Of a stretch of 64,000 nt of DNA, positions 15,569 through 31,707 are shown piece by piece. The notes under the pieces were generated by a model that worked only from the letters and a program-made list of their open reading frames with translations, did no database searches and had not been told where the DNA came from. Made by a program: the position numbers and the translations under genes. The stretch comes from an uncultured bacterium (lineage in GTDB: Bacteria > Cyanobacteriota > Vampirovibrionia > Gastranaerophilales > Gastranaerophilaceae), in assembly GCA_963839525.1 (NCBI GenBank), contig CAWIVJ010000013.1:3183-67182 (forward strand), in the 5' to 3' direction. Positions within the stretch are counted from its first letter, which is position 1. Each line of letters starts with the position of its first letter.

Positions 15569-15830
15569 TTAATTTAAAAGATGTTTATTTCCTGTTATCA
15601 CTTCTAGCGGTGAATTCAACACCTTAAAATCAACGTCATCGGTCACAAGTTTAAAACCATTGTAATTACACAAAAAATTGAAGTATTCATCATTAAAATC
15701 AATACTTAAACCATGCTTTCCCTATTTTATAGGGATATTTTTTTTGTTAAACGCAATAGTAATTAAAGAGATTCCCTTGTCTTCTTTGTTTTTAATTCTA
15801 GTTGCTTTGCTTGTTATTCCAATTACCTCT
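15569..15830 (-). pseudogene. PIN-like (VapC-type) C-terminal remnant with in-frame TAG and no start
   Basis: Minus-strand frame reads ...ITIAFNKKNIPIK*GKHGLSIDFNDEYFNFLCNYNGFKLVTDDVDFKVL...*. The N-terminus is cut off by the integrase fragment. Confidence 0.3.
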
Positions 15831-16016
15831 AAACGTCTAGGTCATTCAAAAGTAAGCACAACTACAGATTTTTATAGTCATTTAATGTTTAAAGCGGATG
15901 AAGTAGCTTCCAATACATTAGCGGGAATATTTTTAATAAGCAAGAAAACAAAGAGAATGTCGAACAGGTTGAAAAATAAAAGTTGGACAAAAGTTGTAAA
16001 TTATCAGGCACTTTGA
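15822..16016 (+). pseudogene. tyrosine recombinase C-terminal fragment
   Basis: TSKRLGHSKVSTTTDFYSHLMFKADEVASNTLAGIFL parallels ISKRLGHSKVSTTTDIYSHLMQKADETASDTLANLLL of the integrase at 27.6 kb, including the catalytic Tyr region. Upstream of it the ORF is unrelated hydrophobic sequence. Confidence 0.7.
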
Positions 16017-16050: not shown

Positions 16051-16305
16051 TTAAAAGTTATTATTTAATAACTCTTTCAAATCCAAGTTTAATGCATTAG
16101 CAATTGCACACATTGATTCTAATGTTGGAGATTTTTCAGCTCTCTCTATATCACCAATAGAATTTCTATGCATATTTGCAAGTTCAGCCAAATCTTCTTG
16201 AGATAATTTTTGTTTTTTTCTTTCAACCATTATCTTAAAGCCAAAATTTTTAGATATTTTTTTGTAATTGTTTTTCATATGCATATTATTGTATGCTATT
16301 GACAT
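16051..16305 (-). CDS. XRE-family helix-turn-helix transcriptional regulator
   Basis: KLSQEDLAELANMHRNSIGDIERAEKSPTLESMCAIANALNLDLKELL is a typical HTH_3 pattern. Confidence 0.8.
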   Translation of the reverse strand: MSIAYNNMHMKNNYKKISKNFGFKIMVERKKQKLSQEDLAELANMHRNSIGDIERAEKSPTLESMCAIANALNLDLKELLNNNF

Positions 16306-16367
16306 ATTTAAATCTACATTTTATAATATAAAAAAGTGGACTAAAGTAGTCTAAAAAGGAGCGAGTA

Positions 16368-16580
16368 ATGAATGAACTTAAAAATTATAGTTTTACAGAG
16401 CACGAATTTAGGCAAATGGGAAAATTAGCGGATGATATTTATAATGCAGGGATTGTTTTAGAATGTTTTTGTGAAGCAAATATTGAAATTGAAGAGGTTC
16501 AAAATCTTTTTCCCATTTTGAAATATTTGCATAAAAACGCTGATATACTCAATTGCATTTTTATAAATTATGAAAAATAA
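16368..16580 (+). CDS. hypothetical protein (70 aa), divergent from the XRE gene
   Basis: ORF with AAGGAG upstream; no family recognised. Confidence 0.4.
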   Translation: MNELKNYSFTEHEFRQMGKLADDIYNAGIVLECFCEANIEIEEVQNLFPILKYLHKNADILNCIFINYEK

Positions 16581-16777
16581 CTTCAGTCTGTAGATGGAAT
16601 TACTATTCTGCCAAAAATTAATTTAAGGACTAAATTTACGGTGTGTCTAAAGACAGCACCTTACAAGCTGAATGAAAAAATACAAGTTGTATAAAACAAG
16701 TTTTAATACCATAATATTAATAGGGGGGATTTTTTTAAATATTTTTTTACCATTTATTAGAAAAAAAGGAGGTTAAC

Positions 16778-17173
16778 ATGAATATGCAAAGAAGTAGCAG
16801 AGAAGAGTATACACCTGAGATTTTTGAAAAATTAGAAAATTTAATTAAAGAAAAATTTAATTCTGAAGACTCTCAAATCGTTATAACAGTTGATATAACT
16901 ACTCAAAATAATCCTGTATTTGTATTAAAAATAATGGAAGATTATGGTTATACTAATGAGCGTTCTCAAAGAGAAAAAACATTAAGAATTTGGGAGGAAA
17001 ATGGACAAGAAAGAAGTGGTTTAAATACATTTGATTTTATCATTTACTATAATCAAGATGAAGGAAAATATAAACTAAAAACCAAGAATGATGAATATAT
17101 TGATTTATCCACTAAAGACTTAGAGCGGATTTATAATGAACAATATAAAATTTATAAACCTGCTGTTTTATAA
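16778..17173 (+). CDS. hypothetical protein (131 aa)
   Basis: ORF with AAGGAGG upstream and a terminator hairpin downstream. Confidence 0.5.
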   Translation: MNMQRSSREEYTPEIFEKLENLIKEKFNSEDSQIVITVDITTQNNPVFVLKIMEDYGYTNERSQREKTLRIWEENGQERSGLNTFDFIIYYNQDEGKYKLKTKNDEYIDLSTKDLERIYNEQYKIYKPAVL

Positions 17174-17488: not shown

Positions 17489-17519
17489 AAAAAAAGAAGG
17501 TTTAAAACCTTCTTTTTTA
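17489..17519. terminator. bidirectional intrinsic terminator; native terminator of the tRNA-Arg gene
   Basis: A-run, AGAAGGTT-TAA-AACCTTCT, then T-run, immediately 3' (minus strand) of the tRNA-Arg fragment. Confidence 0.65.
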
Positions 17520-17520
17520 T

Positions 17521-17565
17521 TGGTACGCCCGGAGGGATTCGAACCCCCGACCTTTTGGTTCGTAG
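17521..17565 (-). tRNA. partial tRNA-Arg(ACG): nt 32-76 only (anticodon loop to CCA). This is the displaced native 3' part and forms one att duplication
   Basis: The reverse complement reads CT ACG AA CCAAA AGGTC GGGGG TTCGAAT CCCTC CGGGCGT A CCA. No D-arm or 5' acceptor strand lies upstream of it. Confidence 0.8.
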
Positions 17566-17792
17566 TTGAAAAAGTTACTTTTTATAGCTTTTGGTAATTT
17601 ATCGTAAAGCTAAGTAAAATAAGAGTTTTTGGTTTATAAGCGTTAGTAATTTAAAGTGATTTTTGTTGAATTTTAATAAAATAGTTGAATTATTGTTGAA
17701 TTATTTTTAAGGATTATGAAAATATACCCTTAAGCCCGTACACAGTTTTATATATTCCAAAGATAAACTCTTAAAATTGCCCCATTAATCCT

Positions 17793-17960
17793 ATGCAGAA
17801 ATTTGTTTTTAATAATCCACAACCTGTAGCTCATGCAAGAGCATGGATTAAATTCCTTTTTGGCAGTATAATTCCTTATCTGATGATTTTAGCAGGGCTT
17901 AAATGGCTTGCCGTGGGCTGTGAATTTAAAAATACGCCTATTTATAACCCAATTTTTTAA
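17793..17960 (+). CDS. possible 55-aa small hydrophobic protein (below the track cutoff)
   Basis: ATG..TAA ORF MQKFVFNNPQPVAHARAWIKFLFGSIIPYLMILAGLKWLAVGCEFKNTPIYNPIF with one predicted TM-like stretch. No clear SD. Confidence 0.2.
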   Translation: MQKFVFNNPQPVAHARAWIKFLFGSIIPYLMILAGLKWLAVGCEFKNTPIYNPIF

Positions 17961-18002
17961 TTCTTCTTTTTTGTTCCTTATTGTATTTAAATCACTTTAA
18001 TC

Positions 18003-18031
18003 TTGACTATTTAAATAATATCAGGTAATAT
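18003..18031 (+). promoter_or_regulatory. sigma70-like promoter for the fic gene
   Basis: TTGACT (18003-18008), 17-nt spacer, TAATAT (18026-18031). Confidence 0.4.
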
Positions 18032-18066
18032 TAGATATTATTAGATAATATTAGGTATTATTAGAT
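18027..18066 (+). repeat. 2 x 20-bp tandem direct repeat filling the fic leader
   Basis: AATATTAGATATTATTAGAT / AATATTAGGTATTATTAGAT, ending exactly at the ATG. No purine-rich SD. Confidence 0.6.
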
Positions 18067-19113
18067 ATGATTAGCTCAAATGATTTTCAAATAACCTCTC
18101 AAATGCTTACTATTATAGCTGAAATTGACGAATTTAAAGGCGAATGGAAAGCTCTAGGGAATATTTCACCTGATATTTTAAATTCTTTGAAAAAAGTAGC
18201 AACAATTGAAAGTGTCGGCTCCTCAAATCGTATTGAAGGGAATAAATTATCCGACAAGCAAGTCGAAGAGCTGCTATCACGTATTGATAAAAAATCTTTT
18301 GCGTCACGTGATGAAGAAGAAGTTGCAGGTTATGCTGATTTAATGAACCTGATTTTTGAAGATTATTTGGTTGTCCCCCTGAGTGAGAATTATATAAAGC
18401 AATTGCACAGCATTTTGCTTAAATATTCCAAAAAAGATGCTAAACATAAAGGCGAGTATAAAAAGCTTGAAAATAGCGTTATGGCTTATGATGCAAAAGG
18501 TAAGGAAATTGGTGTTATATTTGAAACCGCAAGTCCTTTTGAAACTCCTCTAAAAATGCAAGAATTAGTGGAATGGGCAAGAAAAAATATTGATGATAAG
18601 TTTCATCATCCGATAATTGTTATAGGTGCTTTTATAGTAAATTTTCTTGCTATACATCCGTTTCAAGACGGTAACGGCAGATTATCGAGAGCTTTAACTT
18701 GTTTATTACTTCTAAAAGCCGGATATGCTTATACCCCTTACAGTTCGATAGAATCTATTATTGAGGATAATAAAGAAGGCTATTACAGGGCATTAAGACA
18801 AACTCAAATAACGCTTAATAAAAAGCCCGATTATGAACCTTGGTTAATGTTTTTCTTAAGGACATTACAAAAACAAAAAATAAGGCTTGAGCATAAAATA
18901 AGCAAAGAAACCATAAGCAAGCTTACTCTGCCTGAATTATCAACGCAAATTTTAGATTTATTTAACCAAAAAGAAAGAATAACTGTAGCGGATATAGTTA
19001 TTAAAACTGGCGCAAATATTAATACAGTCAAAAAACACGTAGCAAATCTTGTAAATAATAAATATCTTACAAAACACGGTACAACAAGAGGCGTTTGGTA
19101 TACAAAGAATTAA
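18067..19113 (+). CDS. Fic/DOC family protein (AMPylase-type) with N-terminal inhibitory motif and C-terminal wHTH-like domain
   Basis: Fic motif HPFQDGNGRLSR. SNRIEG matches the (S/T)xxxE(G/N) inhibitory helix. 348 aa, intact. Confidence 0.9.
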   Translation: MISSNDFQITSQMLTIIAEIDEFKGEWKALGNISPDILNSLKKVATIESVGSSNRIEGNKLSDKQVEELLSRIDKKSFASRDEEEVAGYADLMNLIFEDYLVVPLSENYIKQLHSILLKYSKKDAKHKGEYKKLENSVMAYDAKGKEIGVIFETASPFETPLKMQELVEWARKNIDDKFHHPIIVIGAFIVNFLAIHPFQDGNGRLSRALTCLLLLKAGYAYTPYSSIESIIEDNKEGYYRALRQTQITLNKKPDYEPWLMFFLRTLQKQKIRLEHKISKETISKLTLPELSTQILDLFNQKERITVADIVIKTGANINTVKKHVANLVNNKYLTKHGTTRGVWYTKN

Positions 19114-19252
19114 AATAAAAAACCCGACATAATAGCCGGGTCTTAAGTAATTCTTTGGGGGTTGTTAGTTAGTTTTCTACTCAATAACGGGCATTTATAC
19201 AATGCAGAATAAGCAAAATAAAACCCGACTAGGTCAGGCTGTTGAGGTTGTA

Positions 19253-19549
19253 TTATGCTTTTTTACTTTTATAAATACTATTACAGAGCCCTGCGACCTC
19301 AATAAAATGGTCGAAAAGATAAGTGAGCAAGTATTTGAGAAGAAAATTACTCAAGAATAAATATTGATAAATTAATAATAACGAAAGACTGCAATACATC
19401 TTTAAACTCAATCCAGAATTATTAAATGCTCCTCCGGATAAGAAAACAATATTTGCATGCATAATTTTTCTAATAAATTTTTCATTTTCTGTCATCTCTT
19501 TTTCTCCTTCTGTTGATTGGCTTTCCTTTCCTAAAGTTGCTGTTGCCAT
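19253..19549 (-). CDS. hypothetical ORF, probably a phage gene remnant
   Basis: AAGGAGG-coupled ATG directly after the preceding stop. Only the first 30 or so residues look protein-like; the rest is low complexity. Confidence 0.3.
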   Translation of the reverse strand: MATATLGKESQSTEGEKEMTENEKFIRKIMHANIVFLSGGAFNNSGLSLKMYCSLSLLLIYQYLFLSNFLLKYLLTYLFDHFIEVAGLCNSIYKSKKA

Positions 19550-19550
19550 T

Positions 19551-20899
<1,349 letters not shown>

Positions 20900-21184
20900 T
20901 TATTCAATCCCGAACACATCTTTTGCGATTTGTTGCGCTGTTTCGGACGTTATAGGCTTGTAAGAACTTTTGTTTTCTATTTTCTCAACTGGCTTTTCGC
21001 CTATAGTGTCACGTATTGCGTTAAATGCTTGCACATCACCTTTTAAAGCCTTTTCAAAGAGTGCTAAACATAACTTTTGCTGATTTGTTTGTCCTTTATC
21101 ACCTTTAAGTTCAAGCAGAGCTTTCAGGGCATCTTTGAGTTTCTTTTTTTCACGTCTTGCTTCGCCTGATTTCTGGCCGCCCAA
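20900..21184 (-). CDS. phage terminase small-subunit-like protein (N-terminus uncertain; TTG start or truncated)
   Basis: GGQKSGEARREKKK ... ALKGDVQAFNAIRDTIGEKP resembles small terminase proteins from memory. The same frame is open upstream (NLKPLNTRTKDEQREIAS) without an ATG. Confidence 0.4.
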   Translation of the reverse strand: MGGQKSGEARREKKKLKDALKALLELKGDKGQTNQQKLCLALFEKALKGDVQAFNAIRDTIGEKPVEKIENKSSYKPITSETAQQIAKDVFGIE

Positions 21185-21331
21185 AGATGCAATTTCTCTT
21201 TGTTCATCCTTTGTTCTTGTATTTAAGGGTTTTAGATTTTAGTTGTTCATGGTTTTTCACCTGCCTTTACTGGAATATAATTAATCACTATTGGTTCCAT
21301 TTTTATTGTATTCATTATTTTTTTAACTTCC

Positions 21332-21565
21332 TCAGTGCTTATATTTAATTCTGAAGCAAGTCTTACCATATTCTGAATTCATTATTTCTTGCAACTTCCT
21401 CTCTGTCAATTTTTTTTGAGCAGTTTTTTCTTCGTTGTTAATTGGATAACTAACAGGGGAGTTTGTAAATTGAAGAAAGGGGGCTTGATACGATTTCCAA
21501 AAATCGTTCACCTTGTTTACTATTACTTGCTTTTCTAACCTTTCAAGTTTTGATTTAATATTCAT
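21332..21565 (-). CDS. hypothetical phage protein (77 aa)
   Basis: ATG preceded by AAAGGAGAGG directly after the upstream stop (operon packing). Confidence 0.4.
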   Translation of the reverse strand: MNIKSKLERLEKQVIVNKVNDFWKSYQAPFLQFTNSPVSYPINNEEKTAQKKLTERKLQEIMNSEYGKTCFRIKYKH

Positions 21566-21577
21566 AATACCTCTCCT

Positions 21578-22254
21578 TTAAAATAATAAAATATCTAAAT
21601 CATCGAACCAGCACTGCCCACCGTAATCTCCAAACCCTTGACAGCCTAAGTACACAATTAAACTTGTACTTAATGCCGTTGTATCAGTCATTGTATATGT
21701 GTGGGCAGGAGATGCAGGTTTTACTCCTGTTGTATTTACAGTAACTCCTACTTGCAAACCTCTTTTTTGAACAAAAACATAGTATTTAGAAGTACGTGAA
21801 AAATTATATGGATAACCTAATAGTGAATTATTATTTAAAATAGATAATGTTCCACCAGTGTTTACATCAGTGTGTATTCTAAATTCCAGTCCATATAAGG
21901 CACTAAAAAGCCCCGGGCTTCCTGTGCTTCCTCCAATAGATAATGCTACTCTTTCTGTGTTATATGGGAGAGCATCAGATGAAAGTTGGAAGCTAAATTT
22001 AAGGTCAAAACTACGGTTTATGTTGTAACTTTCTTTGAACTTTTAATTTAATAAGATTTATTGTATCCTGTTCCATAAGTATTACAATAAACCCTGCTTA
22101 CTGTTATCAGAGCCTTTCTATAAGAAAACCAATCCCAGTTATTATAAATATCGTACCAAACATTATTTGCGGGCGGAGTGTAGCTTGTACTAAAGTTTTC
22201 CGTAAAAGGCGTATAACCTCCGCAAAGTGATAATAATCTTTTATTATCGCTCAT
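21578..22254 (-). pseudogene. frameshifted phage structural-like gene (beta-rich, possibly LamG/jelly-roll-like)
   Basis: ORF 22048..22254 ends at TAA. A 157-codon start-less ORF (KFKESYNINRSFDLKFSFQL...GGQCWFDDLDILLF*) continues in another frame down to 21578. Confidence 0.45.
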
Positions 22255-22326
22255 TATGCTATTCCCTCTTCTTGTTGTAGTAATCCTAAATTAAAAATTG
22301 CTTTTTTGATATAATACTGAACGCAC

Positions 22327-23055
22327 TCAAACTCCCCCTTTAGGCTGTTTTTTTGATATGTCGTCTTGTTCACACTGATTGCAACCCATTAAACAAAGTT
22401 CGGATGCCTGATGTAAACTATGCGCTAAATTCTCTAAATATAACTCTTTGTAATCCTCATCGGTTTTAATTTCTTTTAGTTCTATACTCTGCTTTTTCAG
22501 CTTTTTTCTGGTCTGTTCGTCCGCAACTACAATAGTGGCCGTTCTACCGTCAATTTCTTGCTTATAGGTAAATAATTGTAACTCATTGTCTTTGTTCATT
22601 TTGTTTTCCTTTCTTTCTAAAATAGTTCCTATTGTGGAAATTGAAACTCTGACATAAGGTGTTTCAGAGTAAAATTTGTTTATTATTAATGTTGAAATTT
22701 GTTTGTCATCCGGGTATGCAATTCCGTTCAGTGCATCCAAAATGTTTTTTGAAATATTATCACAGTCGGGCTTTATAGTAGGTCTTATGGCCCCTGAGAG
22801 AGCGTTATTTCTTTTAACCTTTGAAAATGACTTAGGTATCTCAAAATAAACGTCTATTTGAGCCGTAATAGCTTTGTCGATAAATTGAGTAGGAATATAG
22901 TCGGGGTATTCGCTGCAAAAAGATTGTTTTACCCAGTTTGCATAATTAACCATTTCAGGCGGAGTGTATTTTTTCATAAATCCACCCACATTAGCGAATT
23001 TTACGCTCTGCTTTGCCTGCACCTTACCCGGTATAATAAAATTTAATTCTTCCAA
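22327..23055 (-). CDS. rusA: RusA-family Holliday junction resolvase with a C-terminal extension of about 100 aa (TTG start)
   Basis: IKPDCDNISKNILDALNGIAYPDDKQI core motif. AAAGGAGA 8 nt upstream of the TTG. Confidence 0.75.
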   Translation of the reverse strand: MEELNFIIPGKVQAKQSVKFANVGGFMKKYTPPEMVNYANWVKQSFCSEYPDYIPTQFIDKAITAQIDVYFEIPKSFSKVKRNNALSGAIRPTIKPDCDNISKNILDALNGIAYPDDKQISTLIINKFYSETPYVRVSISTIGTILERKENKMNKDNELQLFTYKQEIDGRTATIVVADEQTRKKLKKQSIELKEIKTDEDYKELYLENLAHSLHQASELCLMGCNQCEQDDISKKQPKGGV

Positions 23056-23068
23056 CTTTCAATCTCCT

Positions 23069-23885
23069 TTATTTTCTTTTTAATCTATAATCATCACCTG
23101 TACATTTAATCAATGTGAAATTACCACATAGGCGACTTATAAGGGCTTTGCCCCCACTGTCAAATTGAGTTTCAAGATAATCAATAGTATTTTCGGTGGT
23201 TATTACAGTCGGTTTTTATTGTTATGCTTTGAATCCAAAATTAAATATAATTGTTCAAGCACCCATGAAGTTTTATTTTCTTTGCCTAAATCGTTAAGGA
23301 CAAGCAATCCTGTATTTATATAAGGTGTTGTATCAAAGTCTTTACGCATCTGATTCATCATTGTTGTACTGCTTATAAAGACAGTTGGGATTTGTTCTTT
23401 TATAGCTTCCTTTGCAATTGCAATCGCTAAATGAGTTTTCCCAGTTCCGACATTACCATAACCGGCGATTATAAGATTTTTACCATTTTTAACTTTGTCT
23501 ATGTCTTTAATATAGGTTATTGCTTGATTTTTTGCCTTGCTTAATAATCCCGTAAGCGGTTTAAAGTTTTCAAAAGAATTCTCATGCCGGTTAAACGGAA
23601 TATAAGAGTTATTTAATAAACGTTCTGCATAACAAACGGCTTTTTCGTTTTCTCGGTTAGAAATAAACCTTGAACTTACGTTTTTTCTATCGCTCTTAAA
23701 ATACTTTTTCTTTCCGAATCAGATTGTGCAGTTAAATATTTATTTGTAAAATACTCCTCTAATTCATCCGCTTTATCGGAATATGAATTAACCAATCTTA
23801 CTAAGTTCGGGGCTTGCTCTGAAAGAGATTTAACATCTTTCCAAATAAGCTTATTTAGTGATATATAATGTTCTTTAGTCTGCAT
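23069..23885 (-). pseudogene. DnaC/IstB-like helicase-loader ATPase, two frameshifts at A-runs
   Basis: Middle frame carries Walker A GYGNVGTGKTHLA and Walker B LLVLNDLG. The frame changes at GAAAAAACG (about 23680) and AATAAAAACC (about 23215). Confidence 0.7.
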
Positions 23886-23887
23886 AA

Positions 23888-24619
23888 TTACTCCTTACTA
23901 TATTGTTCATAATCGCTCTTAAAACTTGCACCCGTTAGGCATGAAAGGTTTTTGTTTGTACTATTAGAAAACTGTTTAGCATTAACCTCCCATTTTCTTA
24001 TAGCAGCTTGCTAGTCTTTCATTTTACTTTTACCAACCATCCAACCATTGCAATCATAATGATTAATGAATGCTTCGGGGCTTATATTATTTTTTCTTTC
24101 AATGCAATATTGTTTTACTTCTTCTAAAGAAGGTTTTTGAAAAGATTTTTTTTGTGTCTTATTATCATTTACATTATCATTTACATTATCATTTACATTT
24201 ACATTATCATTTACATTTACATTGGGGGTTGTTTTGGGGTTATTTTGGGGTTGTTTTTTTGTAGCATTATTATTCCCAACAGGTGCACCACCCAAGTTGC
24301 CATAATTAGCACCTTTACAACCATTTATATACTTTTTATTGTTAGCCTCAATTTGAGGGCGGATTAGAGCGAACAGATTTTTTTGTATTCCTTCTAGCTC
24401 CAATTCTTCAAAATCTAAAGATTTTCTTATAATTGCATCAAAAACGGCAAGTCTATCTTTATCCAATAAGCCCTCTAAAGCTTCTGCATAGCTCCGATAA
24501 AAAACAAAACTATCCCGTTTGTTTTCTAAAACATTGAATTTTTGCCGTTTTAATGGTACAATATCAGTATGGATATTTACTGCCTCTGAATCAGGGGCTT
24601 TTTTATTGCTTATTGTCAT
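23888..24619 (-). pseudogene. phage replication-associated protein with an internal in-frame TAG (24011-24013)
   Basis: After KMKD-TAG the same frame continues QAAIRKWEVNAKQF...YSKE and ends at TAA 23888-23890, with its final codons forming the SD (AAGGAG) of the next gene. Also contains an NVNVNDN repeat. Confidence 0.55.
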
Positions 24620-24628
24620 TTGCGCCCC

Positions 24629-24883
24629 CTATACTTCTACTGGTTGGATATTAAAATTATTTGATGATACGATTGTAGCCTCATCTGTTCCAGTACAGGA
24701 ATTAAGATATTCTACCAGCATTGGCAAATTCACAAGGTACTTTCTTCCTGCTCTTACGTGCTTAATGCGTTTTTCAAGGCATAATTGACGTATACGAAAT
24801 TTGGCTAATCCGACAATTGTCGCAGCCTCATTAATTGTTACCATTCCTGCAATGTTTAAGTTTTCGTTAATTTGTTGTAGCAT
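24629..24883 (-). CDS. excisionase-like / MerR-superfamily HTH DNA-binding protein
   Basis: MVTINEAATIVGLAKFRIRQLCLEKRIKHVRAGRKYLVN pattern typical of HTH_17/Xis proteins. Confidence 0.55.
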   Translation of the reverse strand: MLQQINENLNIAGMVTINEAATIVGLAKFRIRQLCLEKRIKHVRAGRKYLVNLPMLVEYLNSCTGTDEATIVSSNNFNIQPVEV

Positions 24884-24963
24884 TTTTAGTCCTCCTTTAT
24901 TAAACTATGTTTAAATTATTGAGATTGTCTAAAGGAAATCTATCGGGGAATGGCTAAGGGTTT

Positions 24964-25200
24964 CTAAGGGTTTTCCCTGATTTTTTCAAGGCTATAAATA
25001 AAATCTAAAATTGCTTTTTTACCTTTTTTATCAGTAGCAAAATATTCTTTTATTTTCTTTAAAATCTTTGATATATGTGTCTCTAAGGTTTTTTTAGACA
25101 TATATAAGTTTTCGGCAACTTCTTCATTAGATAAAATACGGTTATTAAGTATTATTTGTATTACTTCTTCTTCTTTTTCTGTGAATTGGAATTTTTGCAC
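24964..25200 (-). CDS. LuxR/GerE-type HTH protein (sigma-70 region 4-like)
   Basis: FTEKEEEVIQIILNNRILSNEEVAENLYMSKKTLETHISKILKKI. Confidence 0.5.
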   Translation of the reverse strand: MQKFQFTEKEEEVIQIILNNRILSNEEVAENLYMSKKTLETHISKILKKIKEYFATDKKGKKAILDFIYSLEKIRENP

Positions 25201-25466
25201 AATCGGTGCTTGGAAATTTATTGGATATTGAGTATTAATATCTTGCTGCTGGATTTCAGGTTTGTTCAGGTTTTCGGTTAGCTTTCTCCTCTATACTTGA
25301 TTTTAATTGTTCAAGAGTTTCCTCTGTTATTCTATAAATATCACAATCAATCTCATAAATATCAAAATGTTCAAAATCATAAAAATATTCAAAATGAAAA
25401 TTCTTAGGTTCCCATTGTAGAAAATTACCTAATTTAATCCAACATTTTTCATATTCATCATATTCT

Positions 25467-26111
25467 TTAAAGATATCTCCAAAGGTAGTTCTTTTTTGAC
25501 AAGGGATTCTGTTTCTTTTCTTCTGATTCTTTTATCTTGTTAAATTCTTCAATTTTTTTAGGGTTTGTATCACTAATTAATTTTTTAATTCCATTTTTTT
25601 CATCATTAATAAGTTTATTTGATTGCTCTATTATACTATATTTTTCAAGTTTTTCATATTTAGATTTATATTTTTCATATTCGGAAAACTTTTTTATAAA
25701 GTAATAACAAGTTTCTTCTTCTTCGTATGGTTTATATAATTCTCTATGTTTTAATTTTTTATACTTATCAACATTAATTTTAGATGATTCATCTAATAAA
25801 TTTTCGTCTATTAAATAGATTAAATTATCCTTTATTTTGTCCATTTTAACAAGCAAACAGCTAAATTCCGTATCCGACTTTATTAAATTCTGAAAATAAT
25901 TTACTTTTTCTTGATATAATTGCTTTAACTGTGGTGTTTTATCAATAAGTCTATTCTTAATATCCCCATGTATAAAATTTTTTAAAAAAATATCTTTTTT
26001 TTGTTGGAACTTGTCTAGGTTTTTATATCTTTCAAAACTTTTTAAATAAGCTTCAATTTTAGTTATAATTTATTTATTTGTAAATTCTTCTTGCTTTGTT
26101 AAATTTGTCAT
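25467..26111 (-). pseudogene. hypothetical phage gene with an in-frame TAA at codon 14
   Basis: ATG 26111 and track ORF 25467..25856 are in the same frame (645 nt), interrupted only by TAA at 26070-26072. A further start-less ORF follows at 25230-25470. Confidence 0.35.
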
Positions 26112-26267
26112 AATCGTTTAAATACCTCCTGTAGAATTAGTCCTAATAAAGCCCTAACAATATTTTTAACTGTTGCATTTTATTTCCTTTTTTGTTATAC
26201 TATTATAAGTACATGTTAAACTCATTATAAACCAAAGGGCATTAAAAAGCAATAAGGAATATTTAAA

Positions 26268-26480
26268 ATGATTAAAAATAACTTAAAAATGATATTAGCT
26301 GATAGAGAAATTACGATAAATAAACTAGCCACAATGACAGGTGTTAGATATGCAACGCTCCACGCGTTTGTTAAACAAAGGGTATCAATTATTAACTGCG
26401 CTGTTTTGGATAAAGTTTGTGAAGTATTAGACCTTAAGCCAGGCGATTTTATTGCATATATCCCTGATAAAAAGGAATAG
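26268..26480 (+). CDS. Cro/XRE-type HTH regulator
   Basis: ITINKLATMTGVRYATLHAFV...LDKVCEVLDLKPGDF, located directly upstream of the integrase. Confidence 0.7.
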   Translation: MIKNNLKMILADREITINKLATMTGVRYATLHAFVKQRVSIINCAVLDKVCEVLDLKPGDFIAYIPDKKE

Positions 26481-26489
26481 GGGGAAGCA

Positions 26490-27764
26490 ATGGCAAACAT
26501 ACAATCAAGAAAAAACAAAGAAGGCAAAATTATTTCTTATTCTATACGTGTTCACAAGGGCAGAGATGCTTTCGGTAAGCAATTAAAGCCTTATGTAATG
26601 ACTTGGGTTGTACCCGAAGGCTGGACTAAAAGCCGCATAGAAAAGGAAGTACAGGCACAAGCTGTTATATTTGAGCAAAAATGTAAAGAGGGGATTATTG
26701 CCGATAACAAGCAAACCTTTGAACGATATGCCGACTATGTTATCAAGCTAAAAGAACGCACAGGCGTAAAGCACAGAACTATCTCTTATATAAAGATTTG
26801 CTTAAGCGTATTAATCCTGCAATCGGTCATATAAAACTTGCGGACCTGCGTCCGCAACATCTTAATGCTTTTTATGAACAACTTGCAGGGGATAAAATGA
26901 ATAAAAAAACAGGTAAAAAGCTGAGTAACAAGACAATTATAGAACATCACAGGCTCATAAGAACTATTTTAGCGGAAGCTGAAAAGGAACTACTTATTAT
27001 GTACAATTCCGCTTCAAAAGCCTCACCGCCAAAGCTAGAGCGTAAAGAAGCCAATCATTTTGAGATAGAAGATATAGAAAACATACTTTTTATGCAAGCA
27101 AAGAGCCTTTAAAATGGCAAGTAGCTTTAAATCTTCTTATATTCACAGGTTGCAGACGTGGTGAAATTATGGGTTTAAAATGGAACAAAGTAGATTTTAA
27201 AAACAATCAATTGCTGTAGCAACAATTTATTTATTCTAAAGAAAAGGATATTATGAAGATACTCCAAAAACAGAGCAATCAAAAAGGATTATAAAATTAC
27301 CGGCAGGCGTAATGGAACTTTTAAAAACCTATAAAAAACAATACAATGAAAATCGCCTTGCATTGGGTAGTAAGTGGCAAAATAAAAACTTTGTATTTAC
27401 ACAAGAAAATGGAAGCCCCAATTTTCCTGATACTTTGACTGATTATTGCAAGGAGTTCAGCATAAAATATAACAAATTGATTAATAAAACAAATGAAGAA
27501 AACAAAAATAAACAGGGATTTGAAAAACTTAAACTATTACCTCATATAAACCCCCATGCTTTCAGGCATACACAGGCAAGTTTGTTATTCTTTAGCGGTG
27601 CAGACTGTACAACCATAAGCAAACGTTTAGGGCACTCCAAAGTATCGACTACAACGGATATTTATAGCCATCTTATGCAAAAGGCTGATGAAACTGCATC
27701 AGACACGCTCGCTAACTTGCTTTTAAATAAAGCAAATAATGAAAAAGAAGCTGCTGAAAATTAG
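26490..27764 (+). pseudogene. int: tyrosine recombinase (phage integrase), disrupted about four times
   Basis: The N-terminal arm-binding-like domain, TGCRRGE (catalytic Arg), HAFRHT and RLGHSKVSTTTDIYSH (catalytic Tyr) lie in three different frames. Frameshifts near 26780, 27100 and 27250, plus an in-frame TAG at 27227-27229. Confidence 0.85.
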
Positions 27765-27874
27765 GCTATTTTTAATCAAAATTTAAGGGCTTGTTGAATT
27801 AAAGTTGAATTATTAGACATTTTCCGAAAAAAAGAGCTTTTAGGATATATCTAAAGCTCTTTATTTTAAGTATT

Positions 27875-27933
27875 TACGCCCGGAGGGATTCGAACCCCCG
27901 ACGGGAGCACGCTGCCAGCTGAGCTACGGGCGC
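27875..27933 (-). pseudogene. truncated tRNA-Arg-like gene (59 nt): acceptor stem, D-arm start and T-arm present, anticodon arm missing, no CCA
   Basis: The reverse complement reads GCGCCCG TA GCTC AGCTGGCA GCGTGCTCCC GTCGGGGGTTCGAATCCCTCCGGGCGT A. About 17-20 nt are missing relative to a normal tRNA. Confidence 0.6.
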
Positions 27934-28255
27934 TTATATATTCAATTTTCATCCGCTTTCTCAGCTGTATAGAGCGTTAATCTAACTTTCTTTGAACTTT
28001 TACTTGCGTAAAAGATTCAATGTGCCAGCTGAGCTACGGGCGCTTATATATTCAATTTTCATCCGCTTTCTCAGCTGTATAGAGCGTTAATCTAACTTTC
28101 TTTGAACTTTTACTTGCGTAAAAGATTCAATGTGCCAGCTGAGCTACGGGCGCTTATATATTCAATTTTCATCCGTTTTCTCAGCTGTATAGAGCGTTAA
28201 TCTAACTTTCTTTGAACTTTTACTTGCGTAAAAGATTCAATGGGCCAGCTGAGCT
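27914..28255. repeat. 110-bp tandem repeat, 3 full copies plus a 12-nt partial; each copy starts with tRNA nt 1-20 and includes 90 bp of tRNA upstream flank
   Basis: Units start at 27914, 28024, 28134 and 28244. Copies 1 and 2 are identical; copy 3 has 2 substitutions. Confidence 0.95.
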
Positions 28256-28337
28256 GTGAATACATTTTCAGTTTATCAAATAAACTTTTTAAATCAAGCT
28301 AATCAAACAAAACAAGTAAAAATCTTATGAATATTAA

Positions 28338-28682
28338 TTATGCTAAATCTTCCGGAAAATATTTATCTATTTCAATAATTTTGCCGTTTAAAGTGTTGTT
28401 TTCAAAGGCTCTGACAAATCTGAACAATTTATCATTAGGGACATCATAATTGTACAAAACAATTTCATTATTAATATGCCGCATAACTCTCACAATGTAA
28501 TGGCATTTCTGTGCATATTTTTCTAAATTCTCCTTTTTAAAAGGTTTTCCGTTACCATCTTTGTCTATTTTTACATAATTAAATCCTGCAAAAAATTTAA
28601 TGTTTTCTTCTTGAGTTAAAGGTTGATCTTTTTTATGTTTAGAAAAAATATTTATAACTTTTTTATTAATTTCATCTGTCAT
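28338..28682 (-). CDS. hypothetical protein (114 aa)
   Basis: ORF only; no family recognised. Confidence 0.45.
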   Translation of the reverse strand: MTDEINKKVINIFSKHKKDQPLTQEENIKFFAGFNYVKIDKDGNGKPFKKENLEKYAQKCHYIVRVMRHINNEIVLYNYDVPNDKLFRFVRAFENNTLNGKIIEIDKYFPEDLA

Positions 28683-28833
28683 ATCTTTATTTAATAATAT
28701 TTTATTAAAAAAGTCTAAATGTAAAAATTACTTAAAATGAAGTAATGAATCTTAATAAATGGCAATAAAAGATGAATTGATATATAATTTTAAATATACT
28801 GATTGATATATTATAAAATAAGGAACAAAATTT

Positions 28834-29091
28834 ATGCTGCCTATTATTACAGAAGAACATTCATCATTGGCTTTTGCGGAAATTTTTCAGGATGTTCATT
28901 CTTGGCGAAAAAAAATGATACATTATATTAAAGAAGAAAATCCTGAAATTAATACTGCAATAATTGAAGCGGCTAATAATACTGATTTAGATCCTAAAGC
29001 AGTTGCTCTTGGAGCTTACATGACATATATTCTCCTCGAAATGGCAATAAAAGATGATGAAATGATATTAGGTGCTTTGGAAGAAGCTTAA
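28834..29091 (+). CDS. hypothetical protein (85 aa)
   Basis: ORF with AAGGAA upstream; no family recognised. Confidence 0.4.
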   Translation: MLPIITEEHSSLAFAEIFQDVHSWRKKMIHYIKEENPEINTAIIEAANNTDLDPKAVALGAYMTYILLEMAIKDDEMILGALEEA

Positions 29092-29249
29092 AATGAGAAA
29101 AATTAAATGCAAGAAAATAAAAAACAAAAAAATAAAAAAATAAAGGTTGAAATAAAAAATATGGGTGTAAACATTGATAAAAATGAATACAAAGAAATTG
29201 TTTTATCCCAATCTAATTGCCCTGATAAAAATTTTTATAAAAATTTTAA

Positions 29250-30281
29250 TTAATCTATCATTTTTGCAAGCTTGAATATATAATCATCATTGGTTTTTGT
29301 AATCATCGGGCTTGGAATGAAGTTTTCTTTAAATTTTTCTATTGCATACCGGTCAGTCATGCCTGAAATATAATCACATGTAATTCTCTGTGCTTTTTCC
29401 AATCCGCAATTAGGAATTAAAAGCTCAATATAATAATTAAAAAGCCACTTAACTATCTCTCTTGCTTTACCTTCATCAAGCTTTGCCGGGGAATCTATAT
29501 AAATATGCTGAAACATCCATTCTCTCAGTTTAGTTGTATAATGCCAGCCTTCTTCACTCATAGAAACATTTGGTTTACCAATCGAATTATTAACAATTTC
29601 TTCTATCATTTTATTCAATCTCTTCTTTTGGTTAGAAGAAAAATATTTTATACAATCCCGAGGCAAATCACCTTCTGCTATAATTCCTGCACGAATTGAA
29701 TCCTCAATATCGTGGTTAATATAAGCTATTTTATCTGCAAGCTGCACGACCTGACCTTCAGGTGTTTTTGGCTGAAAACCCCAGGTATGGGTTAAAATCC
29801 CGTCAATAGTTTCCTGACACAGATTTAATTTTTCTAAAAATTCAACAACCCGAACACTTTGCATATTATGATGAAAGCCGCCCGGCATAAGTTCATCCAA
29901 AACGCTTTCTCCGCAGTGACCAAAGGGAGTATGGCCTAAATCATGTCCCAGAGCAATTGCTTCCACCAAATCTTCATTTAAATCAAGCGCTCTTGAAATA
30001 GTCCGTCCAATTTGAGAAACTTCAAGAGTATGAGTTAAACGGGTTCTAAAATGGTCATTAAAGGGCGATAAATAAACTTGCGTTTTATGCTTTAATCTGC
30101 GGAATGCTTTTGAATGTAAAATTCTGTCTCTGTCTCGCTGAAAATCTGTACGCAGCGGACATTCATCTTCCTGTTTTTTTCTGCCCGCAGAAAATCGGCT
30201 CTTTGTTGCAAATTCGCTTAAGGTTTTGATTTCTTTTTGTTCAAGTTTATATTTTATTGTATTTTTTAATTCAGTTGTCAT
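29250..30281 (-). CDS. dgt: dGTP triphosphohydrolase-like HD-domain protein
   Basis: RTDFQRDRDRILHS, RLTHTLEV and GHDLGHTPFGH motifs. Confidence 0.85.
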   Translation of the reverse strand: MTTELKNTIKYKLEQKEIKTLSEFATKSRFSAGRKKQEDECPLRTDFQRDRDRILHSKAFRRLKHKTQVYLSPFNDHFRTRLTHTLEVSQIGRTISRALDLNEDLVEAIALGHDLGHTPFGHCGESVLDELMPGGFHHNMQSVRVVEFLEKLNLCQETIDGILTHTWGFQPKTPEGQVVQLADKIAYINHDIEDSIRAGIIAEGDLPRDCIKYFSSNQKKRLNKMIEEIVNNSIGKPNVSMSEEGWHYTTKLREWMFQHIYIDSPAKLDEGKAREIVKWLFNYYIELLIPNCGLEKAQRITCDYISGMTDRYAIEKFKENFIPSPMITKTNDDYIFKLAKMID

Positions 30282-30344
30282 TTTAAGTCTCCAAATAAAT
30301 TATACTATGAAATTAAGTATTTAACAGTTATTTAATACTTCAAC

Positions 30345-30382
30345 CTAAATACATTTTGAAAATACTTCCAAAATGTATTTAG
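30345..30382. promoter_or_regulatory. perfect 14-bp inverted repeat in the dgt / aminotransferase divergent intergenic region
   Basis: CTAAATACATTTTG - 10 nt - CAAAATGTATTTAG. A third half-site-like AAATGTATTTTG lies about 15 bp downstream. Confidence 0.35.
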
Positions 30383-30465
30383 AATTTGCATATATAAATG
30401 TATTTTGTGTATAATTAAAAATAACTGATATAAAGGGAATTTGTCGGACATACTTTGGAGGATTT

Positions 30466-31707
30466 ATGAAAGAGCTTTTTAATCAATATGTACAATCGCT
30501 TGAAACTTACATAATGTTTCAAATTGGGGAAACCGTTGCCAAAATTAAACCCGAGCTTGAAGCCAAAAACAGAAGTCCGATTTCTTTATCAATGGGAGCG
30601 CCTGTTAAAAACCCTCCGCAATTTGTCATTGACAAATTAAAAGAAGCTCTTGATATTAAGGGTATTCATTCATATTCCAACCCAAAAGGCGAAGCTTTTT
30701 ATCTGGAAGCTATCGCAAAACGTATGGAAAACCGCTTTGGAATAGATTTAGATCCAAAAACTGAAATATTTTCGCTTATAGGTTCAAAAGAAGGTATTGC
30801 GAATTTAATACGTGAATTAATTAATCCAACATCTAATGAATTTGAACGCGATATTATATTAATTCCTGATCCGGGTTATGCTTCTTACAAAGAAATGATT
30901 AAAGTATCAGGCGGAGTAGGATATTCTGTTCCTTTAACTCTGGAAAATAATTACATGCCTGATTTGGATGAAGTTTGGGAAAGCCTCAAAAAAGACGGCT
31001 ATAGTGAAAAAAAAGTTAAAGCATTGATTATAAACTATCCTAATAATCCGCTTGGAGCAACAGCTACATTTGATTACTTTCAAAAAACCGTAGAATTTTG
31101 TAAAAAACATAATATCTTGTTAATTTCAGATGCTGCATACACAGATATGTACTTTGATGAAAAAAACCTTCCGCCAAGCATTTTACAAGTTGAAGGAGCA
31201 AAAGATATTGCGGTTGAATTTTTTAGTTTTTCTAAACCTTATGCAATGACAGGATGGAGATTAGGCTGGGTTTGCGGAAACAAAGAAGCAATATCTATAT
31301 TCGGCAAGCTTAAATCGACTCTTGATACAGGTATTTTTAAAGCGTTGCAAAAAGCGGCCTCGGAAGTTCTCAATTCAAAAGAAGGCGATGAATATATTAA
31401 AGAAGCTAATTCAGGCTTCAAGAAGAAGCAGGAAATTCTTGTTCGCGGCTTGAAAGAGCTTGGCTGGGACATGGATAATTTAAATATTCCTGACGCAACT
31501 TTCTATTTATGGCTGCCAATTCCGCCAAGATATAAATCTTCAAAAGAATTTACGGATGATTTAATGTATAAATCCGGCATTGTAGCAGTTCCCGGAAATG
31601 CTTTCGGTAAATACGGGGAAGGATTTTTTAGAATTTCAATTGTTTGCAGCGACGAAAGCTTGCAGGAAGTTATCAGCAGAATGAAGGAAGACGGATTTTG
31701 CTTTTAA
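30466..31707 (+). CDS. class I/II PLP aminotransferase, LL-diaminopimelate aminotransferase (DapL)-like
   Basis: LIGSKEGIAN, PDPGYASY, NYPNNPLGA and the SFSKPYAMTGWRLGW (PLP-Lys) motifs. DapL assignment is by resemblance only. Confidence 0.7.
   Translation: MKELFNQYVQSLETYIMFQIGETVAKIKPELEAKNRSPISLSMGAPVKNPPQFVIDKLKEALDIKGIHSYSNPKGEAFYLEAIAKRMENRFGIDLDPKTEIFSLIGSKEGIANLIRELINPTSNEFERDIILIPDPGYASYKEMIKVSGGVGYSVPLTLENNYMPDLDEVWESLKKDGYSEKKVKALIINYPNNPLGATATFDYFQKTVEFCKKHNILLISDAAYTDMYFDEKNLPPSILQVEGAKDIAVEFFSFSKPYAMTGWRLGWVCGNKEAISIFGKLKSTLDTGIFKALQKAASEVLNSKEGDEYIKEANSGFKKKQEILVRGLKELGWDMDNLNIPDATFYLWLPIPPRYKSSKEFTDDLMYKSGIVAVPGNAFGKYGEGFFRISIVCSDESLQEVISRMKEDGFCF

Follow-up and report, generated by a model that had tools for sequence, protein, structure and literature searches.

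Why should near-identical copies of a 110-bp unit, each containing the 5' end of a tRNA gene, lie in tandem beside a truncated tRNA and a broken integrase gene? The original prediction saw a private event, in which a tRNA gene was inactivated as an integration target and its promoter-proximal part, tRNA stub plus upstream promoter flank, was amplified through a microhomology. From an analysis of the window (the whole stretch of 64,000 nucleotides) and of related genomes we favour, with moderate confidence, a different explanation: the array represents three copies, in tandem, of a pre-tRNA leader module of lineage-wide occurrence in Gastranaerophilales and is not a private promoter amplification. 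That degree of confidence applies jointly to the identity, anatomy and growth of the array, its transcription and folding, the spread of its core and the history of the window.

The predicted array of 3.1 copies of a 110-bp unit at 98-100% identity was confirmed. Tandem Repeats Finder placed it at 27913-28255 with a period of 110, 3.1 copies, 99% matches, no indels and a score of 672, and a repeat search of the window returned three copies at 100, 100 and 98% identity. The partial fourth copy expected at the array end is present at 28245-28255, where AGCTCAGCTGG equals tRNA nucleotides 9-19, and a CTTTTAC-GCAA-GTAAAAG hairpin was found, as predicted, in every unit. The neighbours of the array are a 59-nt tRNA-Arg-like remnant and a fragmented tyrosine integrase gene, the former adjoining the latter as had been described. 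The units are laid out below; R1 is a model of the stub-hairpin-antisense leader module with a family-A hairpin, built in the present analysis.

27934..28043, minus strand: unit 3, proximal to the remnant; R1 match of 93.6 bits; RNA fold of -29.1 kcal/mol, z = -3.5
27934-27959, minus strand: unit 3, leader
27960-27977, minus strand: unit 3, antisense D-arm
27978-27990, minus strand: unit 3, linker including the degenerate sense remnant GTTAGAT
27991-28021, minus strand: unit 3, hairpin
28023-28043, minus strand: unit 3, stub plus CA
28044..28153, minus strand: unit 2, same sequence as unit 3
28154..28255, minus strand: unit 1, farthest upstream; R1 match of 88.9 bits
28270..28297, minus strand: candidate promoter TTGATT-N16-TAAACT upstream of the array, read by eye and below the 9-of-12 scan threshold

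The anatomy of the unit departs from the original description. Besides nucleotides 1-19 of the tRNA, it contains a hairpin that is conserved and covaries, a degenerate remnant, in sense orientation, of nucleotides ~20-25, the reverse complement of D-arm nucleotides 28-11 and an A-rich leader. The 90-bp 'flank' thus includes ACGCTCTATACAGCTGAG, which is the D-arm of this tRNA in reverse complement, at 27960-27977 and again at +110 and +220; this segment is antisense to nucleotides 28-11, with one mismatch compared with the tRNA-Arg(ACG) of relatives, and lies 3' of the hairpin. The sense piece, ending in the D-loop, spans nucleotides 1-19 in units 2 and 3. In unit 1 it is cut to nucleotides 9-19 (28245-28255), the junction reads GGCCC vs GGCAC and there is a C-to-T change at 28176. 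All three hairpins belong to family A (TTGAA-N-CTTTTAC, loop GTAAAAGTTCAA, covarying across members), with R1 scores of 88.9-93.6 bits. No good sigma-70-type promoter was found inside the unit by a promoter scan at a 9-of-12 threshold, and the A-rich part is a leader motif that also stands in front of tRNA genes lacking the module; the claim that the units are simply stubs with a promoter flank was not supported, and what is repeated is a conserved composite module that precedes many tRNAs. The TTGATT-N16-TAAACT sequence might, as a weak inference from its position, serve as the array promoter, and the orthologous tRNA-Arg leaders of genomes G021 and G108 have TTGAAA-N17-TAATAT or TAAACT at a comparable position. 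Occurrence of the A-rich motif in a 16S-tRNA-Ile spacer was ruled out, there being no rRNA within 8 kb of tRNA-Ile.

The module is widespread. In this genome the same architecture precedes the genes for Lys-UUU, Gly-UCC, Met-CAU, Leu-UAA, Leu-CAA, Val-UAC, Ala-UGC, Thr-GGU and Ile-GAU, that is, at least nine other tRNA genes, and about 10 of 34 tRNA loci carry it; R1 gave eight matches, each upstream of tRNAs. The sense stubs at these modules measure 11-26 nt, values reached by none of 600 random windows, and the antisense arms are complementary to 16-22 nt of the tRNA. Across the order Gastranaerophilales the family-A model was found in 29 of 151 genomes and 16 of 45 genera, and in a phylum-wide sample its matches were confined to this family. 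We studied 37 module-preceded tRNA loci in relatives and this genome, comprising 10 anticodons with one to four copies each, and all 37 have an ARAGORN-called tRNA at the array end; the tRNA species behind modules in relatives include Arg-ACG/CCG/CCT/UCU, Gly, Asp, Lys, Ala, Val and Leu. The stub and the antisense arm follow the sequence of the local tRNA, while the hairpin core is common to unrelated tRNAs: in genome G012, the cores of the Arg-ACG and Gly-UCC modules agree in 44 of 46 columns, vs 12 of 19 positions in the stubs and 13 of 21 in the antisense arms. The hairpin sequence is the same in six species-representative MAGs. Several hairpin families share the one architecture, with insertion points at nucleotides 11-12, 17-19 or 27, and in the Leu-UAA, Val-UAC and Met modules, as well as in ATAGAG...CTCTAT modules, a short sense piece leads directly to the antisense arm. 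One and the same locus differs within a genus, being empty in G021 and holding two units in G104 and G108. An exact-pattern scan of JGI metagenomes for the same species gave 0 matches.

These data bear directly on the possibility that a prophage inactivated the tRNA and that its promoter-proximal part was then amplified once, locally, through the 12-nt microhomology AGCTCAGCTGGC, yielding promoter/leader copies of no wider meaning. Several details agree with such an event: the AGCTCAGCTGGC identity is real and located at the unit boundaries, unit 1 has nucleotides 9-19 alone, as expected of a founder copy, and units 2 and 3 agree with the remnant in the A of GGCA, indicating that remnant-type sequence was used in the expansion. 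However, in this genome and in others the same module and hairpin are found in front of many different intact tRNAs, the unit has no internal promoter, and the 'microhomology' belongs to the module. We consider a one-off event very improbable; as a complete explanation it is, in our reading, already refuted by the wider occurrence of the module, eight R1 matches in this genome and presence in 29 of 151 genomes having replaced the single local amplification first proposed. Because the module is common before many tRNAs, the arrays of relatives end in intact tRNAs and the unit lacks an internal promoter, amplification need not result from inactivation. The microhomology itself was well chosen as a likely substrate of expansion, and the AGCTCAGCTGG(C) identity is, judged from the sequence, likely to have played that part, but it is the module's own D-arm strand, which would account for the expansion.

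The other half of the original prediction, that this tRNA had been an integration target, was upheld in that the remnant stands at the end of an island bounded by 28-nt repeats; a causal link from inactivation to amplification is the part that need not hold. The features on this side of the array are as follows.

17521..17565, minus strand: displaced 3' part of tRNA-Arg(ACG), nucleotides 32-76 with encoded CCA, from sequence reading and repeat search
17566..27874, no strand assigned: prophage-like island of about 10.3 kb, from Pfam matches
26490..27764, plus strand: tyrosine integrase, split over at least three frames; PF00589 at 27312-27764, SAM-like domains at 26798-27112
27875..27933, minus strand: tRNA-Arg-like remnant of 59 nt, made up of att core, 10-nt filler and module-type stub
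27875..27902, minus strand: att core, 28 nt, T-arm and 3' acceptor strand of tRNA-Arg, integrase-proximal copy; exact repeat of 17524-17551
27903..27912, minus strand: filler GCGTGCTCCC, 10 nt read from the sequence, in the place of tRNA nucleotides ~20-45
27913..27933, minus strand: fourth stub, tRNA nucleotides 1-19 plus CA, same as the stubs of units 2 and 3

Two exact 28-nt copies of the tRNA 3' end, in direct orientation and 10351 bp apart, bracket the island, whose genes include, by Pfam, Fic, RusA, HTH_17, DUF6291 and the integrase fragments. As in other tRNA-integrated prophages and islands with tyrosine integrases of the anticodon-loop class, the integrase adjoins the tRNA end of the 10.35-kb island, and the far end carries the displaced 3' fragment with its CCA, with a terminator hairpin and T-run beyond it at about 17490-17519. 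Related integrases target tRNA-Arg(ACG), Met and Asn; their attP corresponds to tRNA nucleotides ~18/32-76 and their attL keeps an intact tRNA-Arg (L093, L112, L119). In the window, by contrast, the tRNA at the integrase-proximal junction is not restored, and the 59-nt remnant lacking an anticodon arm stands in its place. Nor can tRNA integration, which duplicates the 3' part of a tRNA, yield the tandem 5' 19 nucleotides and inverted D-arm found here. Exact-pattern scanning of IMG/VR for the phage attP gave 0 matches, blastn of two units against phage records gave no match, and look-ups of the island proteins in other assemblies were mostly without record.

The remnant is as originally described, 59 nt long without an anticodon arm, and no CCA follows it in the sequence. 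It scored 32.5 bits against the Rfam tRNA model (gathering score 29), with 6 nt replacing a 17-nt anticodon-arm segment; ARAGORN called no tRNA on it, and its fold was no better than that of shuffles (z = -0.61). Its first 21 nt, ending in GCTGGCA, equal the stubs of units 2 and 3, vs GCTGGAT in the real tRNA-Arg of relatives, where GCTGGATAGAGCG occupies the position of the stub end. The 59-nt 'tRNA' looks like a fourth stub joined via 10 filler nucleotides to the 28-nt att core of the prophage remnant. Derivation of the filler from tRNA nucleotides 20-45 by many small deletions was unsupported (LCS 11/12, p about 0.04-0.13). The tRNA-Arg(ACG) due at the array end would have been the former integration site of a now-decayed prophage, and the remnant would reflect either secondary loss of gene nucleotides ~20-45 or a misassembled region.

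A search for another tRNA-Arg(ACG), suggested in the original prediction, was informative: no functional cloverleaf with an ACG anticodon arm was found at the remnant or elsewhere in the 97%-complete assembly, the displaced piece at 17521..17565 being the sole other Arg-ACG sequence in the genome. Since CGT/CGC/CGA codons are used at 13 per 1000, the truncation is either a real deletion with an intact gene left unassembled or an assembly fault. The suggested comparison with relatives showed one tRNA-Arg(ACG) gene, rarely two, with arrays ending in intact tRNAs and the truncated form in none. It is possible, albeit rather less than probable, that copy number, truncated tRNA or both are artefacts that arose when a repeat was assembled at a prophage junction varying between strains, the true locus ending in an intact tRNA-Arg(ACG). 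The absence of that gene despite its codons, and the intact genes of relatives, would fit; so would the 1,194-nt poly-T tract within the island (GC 0.04 at 20000-20999) and a comparison with ENA contig L145, which spans 21452-27875 at 97.3% identity and relative to which the window is short of bases at 26 of 37 indels, with single bases absent at 10 sites in the integrase region. An independent Logan contig (run ERR11523667) would also fit: it is identical to 28211-31025 apart from two nucleotides in the 5' part of unit 1, and breaks off within the first hairpin, as expected at a repeat. On the other hand, the filler GCGTGCTCCC is unique sequence and not something that assemblers invent, the flanks are matched at 100% by Logan contigs, over lengths of 2.8 kb and 1.4 kb, distinct SNPs mark the units, and tandem arrays of the module occur in many independent assemblies. 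Copy number and truncated junction come from a single MAG, in an island with a poly-T tract and many indels vs another assembly; the apparent absence of an essential tRNA-Arg(ACG) flags an assembly fault at the prophage junction or a second, unassembled locus.

Returning to the leader-module explanation, each unit would repeat part of the tRNA 5' end in sense orientation, with the conserved hairpin breaking it in the D-loop; an inverted, fold-back copy of the D-arm and then an ordinary A-rich tRNA leader come next. Every unit carries tRNA nucleotides ~9-19 in the same orientation, and unequal recombination or slippage between this segment and the tRNA gene or a neighbouring unit could add or remove whole units, an exchange that would also hold the copies of one array nearly identical. 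The hairpin core would have moved among different tRNA genes, with the arms copied from the local tRNA. As the array lies between promoter and tRNA, we infer that it is transcribed within the pre-tRNA leader. In the RNA, pairing of each stub to the antisense D-arm of its own unit around the hairpin would give a three-way junction and would hold the antisense strand off the D-arm of the real tRNA, and the modules may affect tRNA maturation. The array here ends in a dead tRNA and thus may lack any function at this locus.

Over 66 distinct sequences, 98.3% of hairpin cells were paired and 13 of 13 pairs varied on both sides, values reached by none of 500 shuffles; the A2 alignment is fitted to the model, which counts against the explanation we prefer, and such covariation can also arise mutationally, via quasi-palindrome correction. 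Wobble pairs in the hairpin were biased to the sense strand (12 vs 2 A.C), which suggests selection on the transcript. Stub-to-antisense positions were 86% paired with no wobble bias (19 G.U vs 24 A.C), and this pairing may be inherited complementarity and not a selected structure. The RNAs of the units folded with z scores of -3.4 to -5.0. A proposal that the antisense acceptor strand closes the module as an RNase P-like minihelix was rejected: RNAfold gave 4-6 bp, yet over 64 modules the mean longest helix was that of controls (3.73 vs 3.69 for mismatched and 3.74 for shuffled).

Whether the module acts as DNA or as RNA is a separate question. A purely selfish miniature element, in which a small hairpin DNA enters the D-loop region of tRNA genes and survivors are those whose gene was rebuilt by partial duplication and fold-back, with no RNA function, would explain the patchy distribution, the empty and filled states of an orthologous site, the near-identical core at unrelated tRNAs and the several hairpin families with one architecture and differing insertion points. 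We regard this as unlikely, since the module shows no clear transposase link, lacks the terminal inverted repeats or target duplication of known elements and, in this genome, has no copies away from tRNA genes; the sense-strand wobble bias and the identical hairpin in six MAGs argue in the same direction. The association with a Y1 transposase was weak and non-significant (Y1_Tnp in 12 of 29 module-positive vs 38 of 122 other genomes), and copy-rich G031 has none. Alternatively, the module could be a dedicated regulatory leader, its hairpin a protein-binding or antitermination-type (boxB-like) element, its stub and antisense arm a switch over tRNA folding or RNase P processing, and its copy number a means of tuning the effect. 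Such a role, which we can advance only tentatively, agrees with the constant sense orientation between promoter and tRNA, with the conservation across genera of hairpin sequence and bulge together with GNRA-like loops, with the A-rich motif GAAAAYTGAATA that follows each unit and also precedes tRNAs without modules, and with antisense arms complementary to 16-22 nt of the tRNA. The module may resemble boxA/boxB elements. However, most genomes of the order lack the module, as does the same locus of a congener, so that it is dispensable. Speculatively, both aspects could be combined in an undescribed tRNA-gene-associated element, a conserved and probably protein-bound RNA hairpin that hops among tRNA genes and gains sense and antisense D-arm copies each time, acting in the pre-tRNA leader as a decoy/anti-decoy that sets the share of precursor folded to mature tRNA, with arrays as dosage variants. 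Were it to act in RNA, the module would be a natural cis-acting control over how tRNAs fold or are processed; as selfish DNA, it would represent a new route of tRNA-gene colonisation, from the 5' side.

The module is apparently undescribed: literature searches found no published description, and among the Rfam 15 models tRNA alone matched, the rest being sub-threshold chance matches. Bacterial tRNA leaders are usually seen as short, featureless spacers, whereas here and at many loci of related gut bacteria one to four structured modules carry the tRNA 5' end in sense and antisense on either side of a conserved hairpin. Annotation is affected as well, since arrays of this kind disrupt assemblies, look like tRNA fragments and may pass for integration scars. 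Hammerhead, Cas12-type repeat and integron attC were considered, but their core motifs do not fit by eye and none gave an Rfam match. The module resembles REP/RAYT elements, miniature derivatives of IS200/IS605 and integron attC sites, small repeats that are recognised in the form of folded DNA, in being a short hairpin with structure kept and sequence varying by family, in many copies per genome; it differs from them in lying solely upstream of tRNA genes, in having arms copied from its target, and in lacking inverse-core/core sites and a clear Y1 transposase association. The RtT repeats of the E. coli tyrT operon (RF00391) consist of about three 178-bp units, each with a fragment of the tRNA-Tyr 3' end. 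Like the window array, they are tandem units of ~100-180 bp, about three in number, beside and co-oriented with the cognate tRNA gene, with a tRNA piece in each. In contrast to it, they lie downstream, derive from the 3' end and have neither an antisense arm nor a hairpin common to different tRNAs, and the RF00391 covariance model gave no match on 26000-30000 at E values up to 10. A further parallel in form is with tandem inversion duplications, fold-back structures of direct-inverted-direct order that were reportedly described in Salmonella by Kugelberg, Roth and colleagues. The module likewise consists of a sense copy, an inverted copy and the sense gene, and turns into its antisense arm within 1-10 nt; unlike those duplications, it is tiny in scale, recurs at one position across at least 10 tRNA species and is always accompanied by a conserved hairpin that is not of local origin.

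The object of interest at this locus is the repeated module, not the broken tRNA. Tandem Repeats Finder reported a single array at 27913-28255 (3.1 copies, period 110, 99% matches, 0 indels), and a repeat search gave copy identities of 100, 100 and 98%. Read along the minus strand, the next sequence after the array is GCGCCCGTAGCTCAGCTGGCAGCGTGCTCCCGTCGGGGGTTCGAATCCCTCCGGGCGTA (27933-27875), a tRNA-Arg-like remnant that was not called as a tRNA by ARAGORN, scored 32.5 bits against the Rfam tRNA model with 6 nucleotides in place of the anticodon-arm segment, and folded no better than shuffled sequences (z = -0.61). These analyses bear out the array and truncated tRNA as originally described. 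The accompanying interpretation, an inactivated tRNA with its promoter-proximal part amplified through microhomology, stands in part. Read on the tRNA strand, a unit comprises the following parts:

Stub: GCGCCCGTAGCTCAGCTGG, tRNA nucleotides 1-19
Junction: CAC, between stub and hairpin
Hairpin: ATTGAA-T-CTTTTAC GCAA GTAAAAG-TTCAAA
Linker: GAAA GTTAGAT TA, a degenerate sense remnant of tRNA nucleotides ~18-25
Antisense arm: ACGCTCTATACAGCTGAG, reverse complement of tRNA nucleotides 28-11
Leader: AAAGCGGATGAAAATTGAATATATAA, the last part of the unit

Because of the antisense arm, what the original prediction took for upstream flank contains an inverted copy of the tRNA's own D-arm. The 12-nucleotide microhomology invoked there belongs to the module itself. 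In the most upstream unit, unit 1, the stub consists of AGCTCAGCTGG only (tRNA nucleotides 9-19), exactly the strand able to pair with the antisense arm.

When 41 relatives were searched by blastn, genomes proved to have the unit at several sites each, often spanning more than two periods. These sites are immediately 5' of tRNA-Arg(ACG), Arg(CCG), Arg(CCU), Gly(UCC) and Asp(GUC), and at each of them stub and antisense arm correspond to the downstream tRNA. We made a covariance model from 21 units, which gave 8 matches in the window's genome, all upstream of tRNAs, and matched 29 of 151 genomes and 16 of 45 genera of the order. Matches in a phylum sample of 301 genomes were confined to the same family. 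Among fetched loci, modules lie in 1-4 tandem copies upstream of Arg (four anticodons), Gly, Asp, Lys, Ala, Val and Leu tRNAs. When 185,579 species genomes were scanned by pattern, the hairpin turned up in 13 low-GC contigs, with one further match due to chance; most of these contigs are titled Candidatus Gastranaerophilales or Gastranaerophilaceae, and a few Muribaculaceae or Lutibacter. Four contigs of 31-38% GC, titled Muribaculaceae (L027, L036 and L038) or Lutibacter (L037), carry modules of Gastranaerophilales type, almost identical to those of the relative G012, and their Bacteroidota labels are probably due to mis-binning or mislabelling.

For a check independent of the hairpin, up to 300 nucleotides upstream of every tRNA gene in the window's genome were searched for a sense copy of the first 26 nucleotides and an antisense copy of the first 32. 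Nine further loci with stubs of 11-26 nucleotides were found (Lys, Val-UAC, Ile, Gly-UCC, Leu-CAA, Met, Thr-GGU, Leu-UAA and Ala-UGC; contigs C3, C4, C5, C7 and C23, loci L146-L153), each with a stub length reached by 0 of 600 random windows and with hairpins other than that of the window. A second hairpin family, with a pentaloop between its stem halves (CTCTGCCG-stem-T[AG]A[AG]T-stem-AGAGAGG), is found at Met, Leu-UAA, Thr-GGU and Ile-GAU. At Leu-UAA, Val-UAC and Met, the antisense arm begins directly where a short sense stretch of the tRNA stops (e.g. TAGACGC-T-GCGTCTACC); at Thr and Ile, the tRNA sequence goes on in sense past the hairpin (nucleotides 16-37 and 31-43, respectively) with no fold-back; and in several modules with the window's hairpin type, the linker is an intact ATAGAG (nucleotides 20-25) facing CTCTAT. 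From these variants, the general plan is a partial tRNA copy in sense, interrupted by a hairpin within or immediately past the D-arm and usually followed by a fold-back inverted copy, a leader, and the next stub or the gene.

The hairpin was 98.3% paired over 73 aligned matches (66 distinct), in an alignment fitted to the model, so that values lean towards structure; all 13 pairs vary on both sides, and the covariation observed in this model-fitted alignment was reached by no shuffle. On the tRNA strand of the hairpin, wobble pairs outnumber A.C mismatches (12 versus 2), suggesting that either the transcript or that DNA strand is under selection, whereas the stub-to-antisense helix was 86% paired without wobble bias (19 versus 24). 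Comparison of the Arg-ACG and Gly-UCC modules of G012 revealed hairpin cores identical at 44 of 46 columns, with 12 of 19 stub positions and 13 of 21 antisense-arm positions matching. Among members of one genus, G021 has an empty tRNA-Arg(ACG) locus (promoter, terminator-like hairpin, 29-nucleotide leader, tRNA), whereas G104 and G108 have two units between the same promoter hairpin and the tRNA. The G012 comparison and the empty and filled loci together show that the hairpin core has moved between tRNA genes, with the arms being local. The tRNA-Arg(ACG) leaders of these three genomes (L089-L091) open with a good promoter followed at once by a GC-rich hairpin and T-run, before the tRNA or modules, which looks like a terminator or attenuator.

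Y1 transposases were not clearly associated (12 of 29 versus 38 of 122 genomes). The module matched no Rfam family, two units had no blastn match in phage records, and no description of the module was found in the published literature. Its closest relatives there are att-site duplications, tyrT RtT repeats, fold-back duplications and small hairpin repeats, each of which has only single features in common with it. On sequence grounds, the module is a conserved, multi-locus, tandemly expanding leader element, with sense and antisense 5'-end pieces of each tRNA around a common hairpin.

Units are near-identical inside an array, and arrays differ between genomes. Because these near-identical units each carry a 19-nucleotide direct repeat of the tRNA 5' end plus ~26 nucleotides of leader, copy-number change would most simply be explained by unequal recombination or slippage between repeats. 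Units 2 and 3 have the junction GGCAC, in which the A agrees with the remnant (GGCAG) and not with unit 1 (GGCCC) or a real tRNA (GGAT); expansion therefore involved remnant-type sequence. The first 21 nucleotides of the remnant and the leader before them are the same as in units 2 and 3, and the most economical reading is that the remnant represents a fourth unit, in which the body and the tRNA to nucleotide ~45 would have been replaced by GCGTGCTCCC.

A promoter scan found no sigma-70-type promoter inside the unit; a weak candidate, TTGATT-N16-TAAACT, lies just 5' of unit 1, and congeneric loci have a clear promoter at the equivalent position. Given this arrangement, the modules are probably part of the pre-tRNA leader. 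Units are predicted to fold as a three-way junction with the stub paired to the antisense arm (z = -3.4 to -5.0). In a working model, this pairing would hold the antisense arm off the real D-arm, and the conserved hairpin, with its GNRA-like loops and bulged U, would serve as a recognition element. An A-rich leader motif, GAAAAYTGAATA, follows each unit and also occurs 5' of module-less tRNAs; it lies 5-25 nucleotides upstream of several tRNA genes in the window's genome (e.g. window 27940-27951). Of its 45 matches in the genome, 10 are upstream of tRNAs, an enrichment over the ~0.1 expected. The motif resembles boxA, and we take it to be, possibly, a boxA-like leader signal; the tRNA-Ile carrying it is outside any rRNA operon in the assembly.

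No tRNA-Arg(ACG) was found in the assembly (2.12 Mb, 33 contigs, 97% complete), even at relaxed search settings. Because CGT, CGC and CGA together are nonetheless used at 13 per 1000 codons (long ORFs), and relatives have one such gene, rarely two, and in no case the truncated form, an intact tRNA-Arg(ACG) must exist in the organism, either unassembled or misrepresented at the window locus. Arrays of the module break contigs in other MAGs. At 5780-5900 of another fetched contig, L031, partial tandem duplication of this gene takes a different form: a tRNA-Arg(ACG) copy cut past nucleotide ~45, then a new leader, then a complete second tRNA.

The final 28 nucleotides of the remnant (27875-27902) are repeated exactly at 17524-17551, 10,351 bp away. 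The far copy matches further: CTACGAACCAAAAG, the core and CCA correspond to nucleotides 32-76 of tRNA-Arg(ACG), and a hairpin and T-run come after this fragment. Between the repeats are genes for Fic, RusA, an HTH_17 protein and DUF6291, and a tyrosine integrase broken over several frames. Viral contigs with related integrases (≤55% identity) have a tRNA sequence ~120 nucleotides behind the integrase gene. In some it is partial, beginning near nucleotide 18-32, and represents the phage attachment site; in others it is a complete tRNA (Arg(ACG), Met or Asn) and represents the integrated state. Normal integration of such elements thus leaves an intact tRNA beside the integrase, and the loss of nucleotides ~20-45 in the window is secondary, or not real.

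An assembly problem at the truncated tRNA and array is a possibility that we consider rather unlikely. The filler is unique sequence, which counts against a crude artefact, and Logan contigs from run ERR11523667 are 100% identical to the flank and to the Fic gene; the one that reaches unit 1, however, stops in the repeat and differs by 2 nucleotides in that unit. The island also holds an uninterrupted 1,194-nucleotide poly-T tract at 19703-20896 (GC 0.04 in 20000-20999), which almost certainly arose in assembly and makes the island's sequence less trustworthy. Positions 21452-27875 are covered, at 97.3% identity, by an ENA contig whose end coincides exactly with the island/core boundary; of the 37 indels between the two, 26 are bases missing from the window, 10 of these in the integrase. 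This contig (L145, ERZ25039500 contig_31951; 12.7 kb), which comes from another assembly and carries the same island with a DnaC-like gene intact, may be the element existing as a molecule of its own, or may end where assembly broke off at a variable junction.

At 15800-16000 and 16051-17173, just past the far att copy, are a second remnant of an integrase C-terminus (...RLGHSKVSTTTDFYSHLM...) and small ORFs of phage-like character, which suggests that the same tRNA has accreted remnants of older islands. A motif, AAAAATA(C/A)AAGTTGGACA, is repeated at 15972, 16676 and 17464. Within the island, a 23-nucleotide stretch at the end of a small ORF (22026-22048) matches the unit's hairpin 3' arm and linker at 22 of 23 positions (TAACTTTCTTTGAACTTTTAATT). 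ATTCACC-like heptamer runs (ttcaccattcaccattaactattcac) are present upstream of single-copy modules in G012 (L017) and G023 (L020), and in the window and G011 the sequence ...ttcac lies immediately 5' of the first stub.
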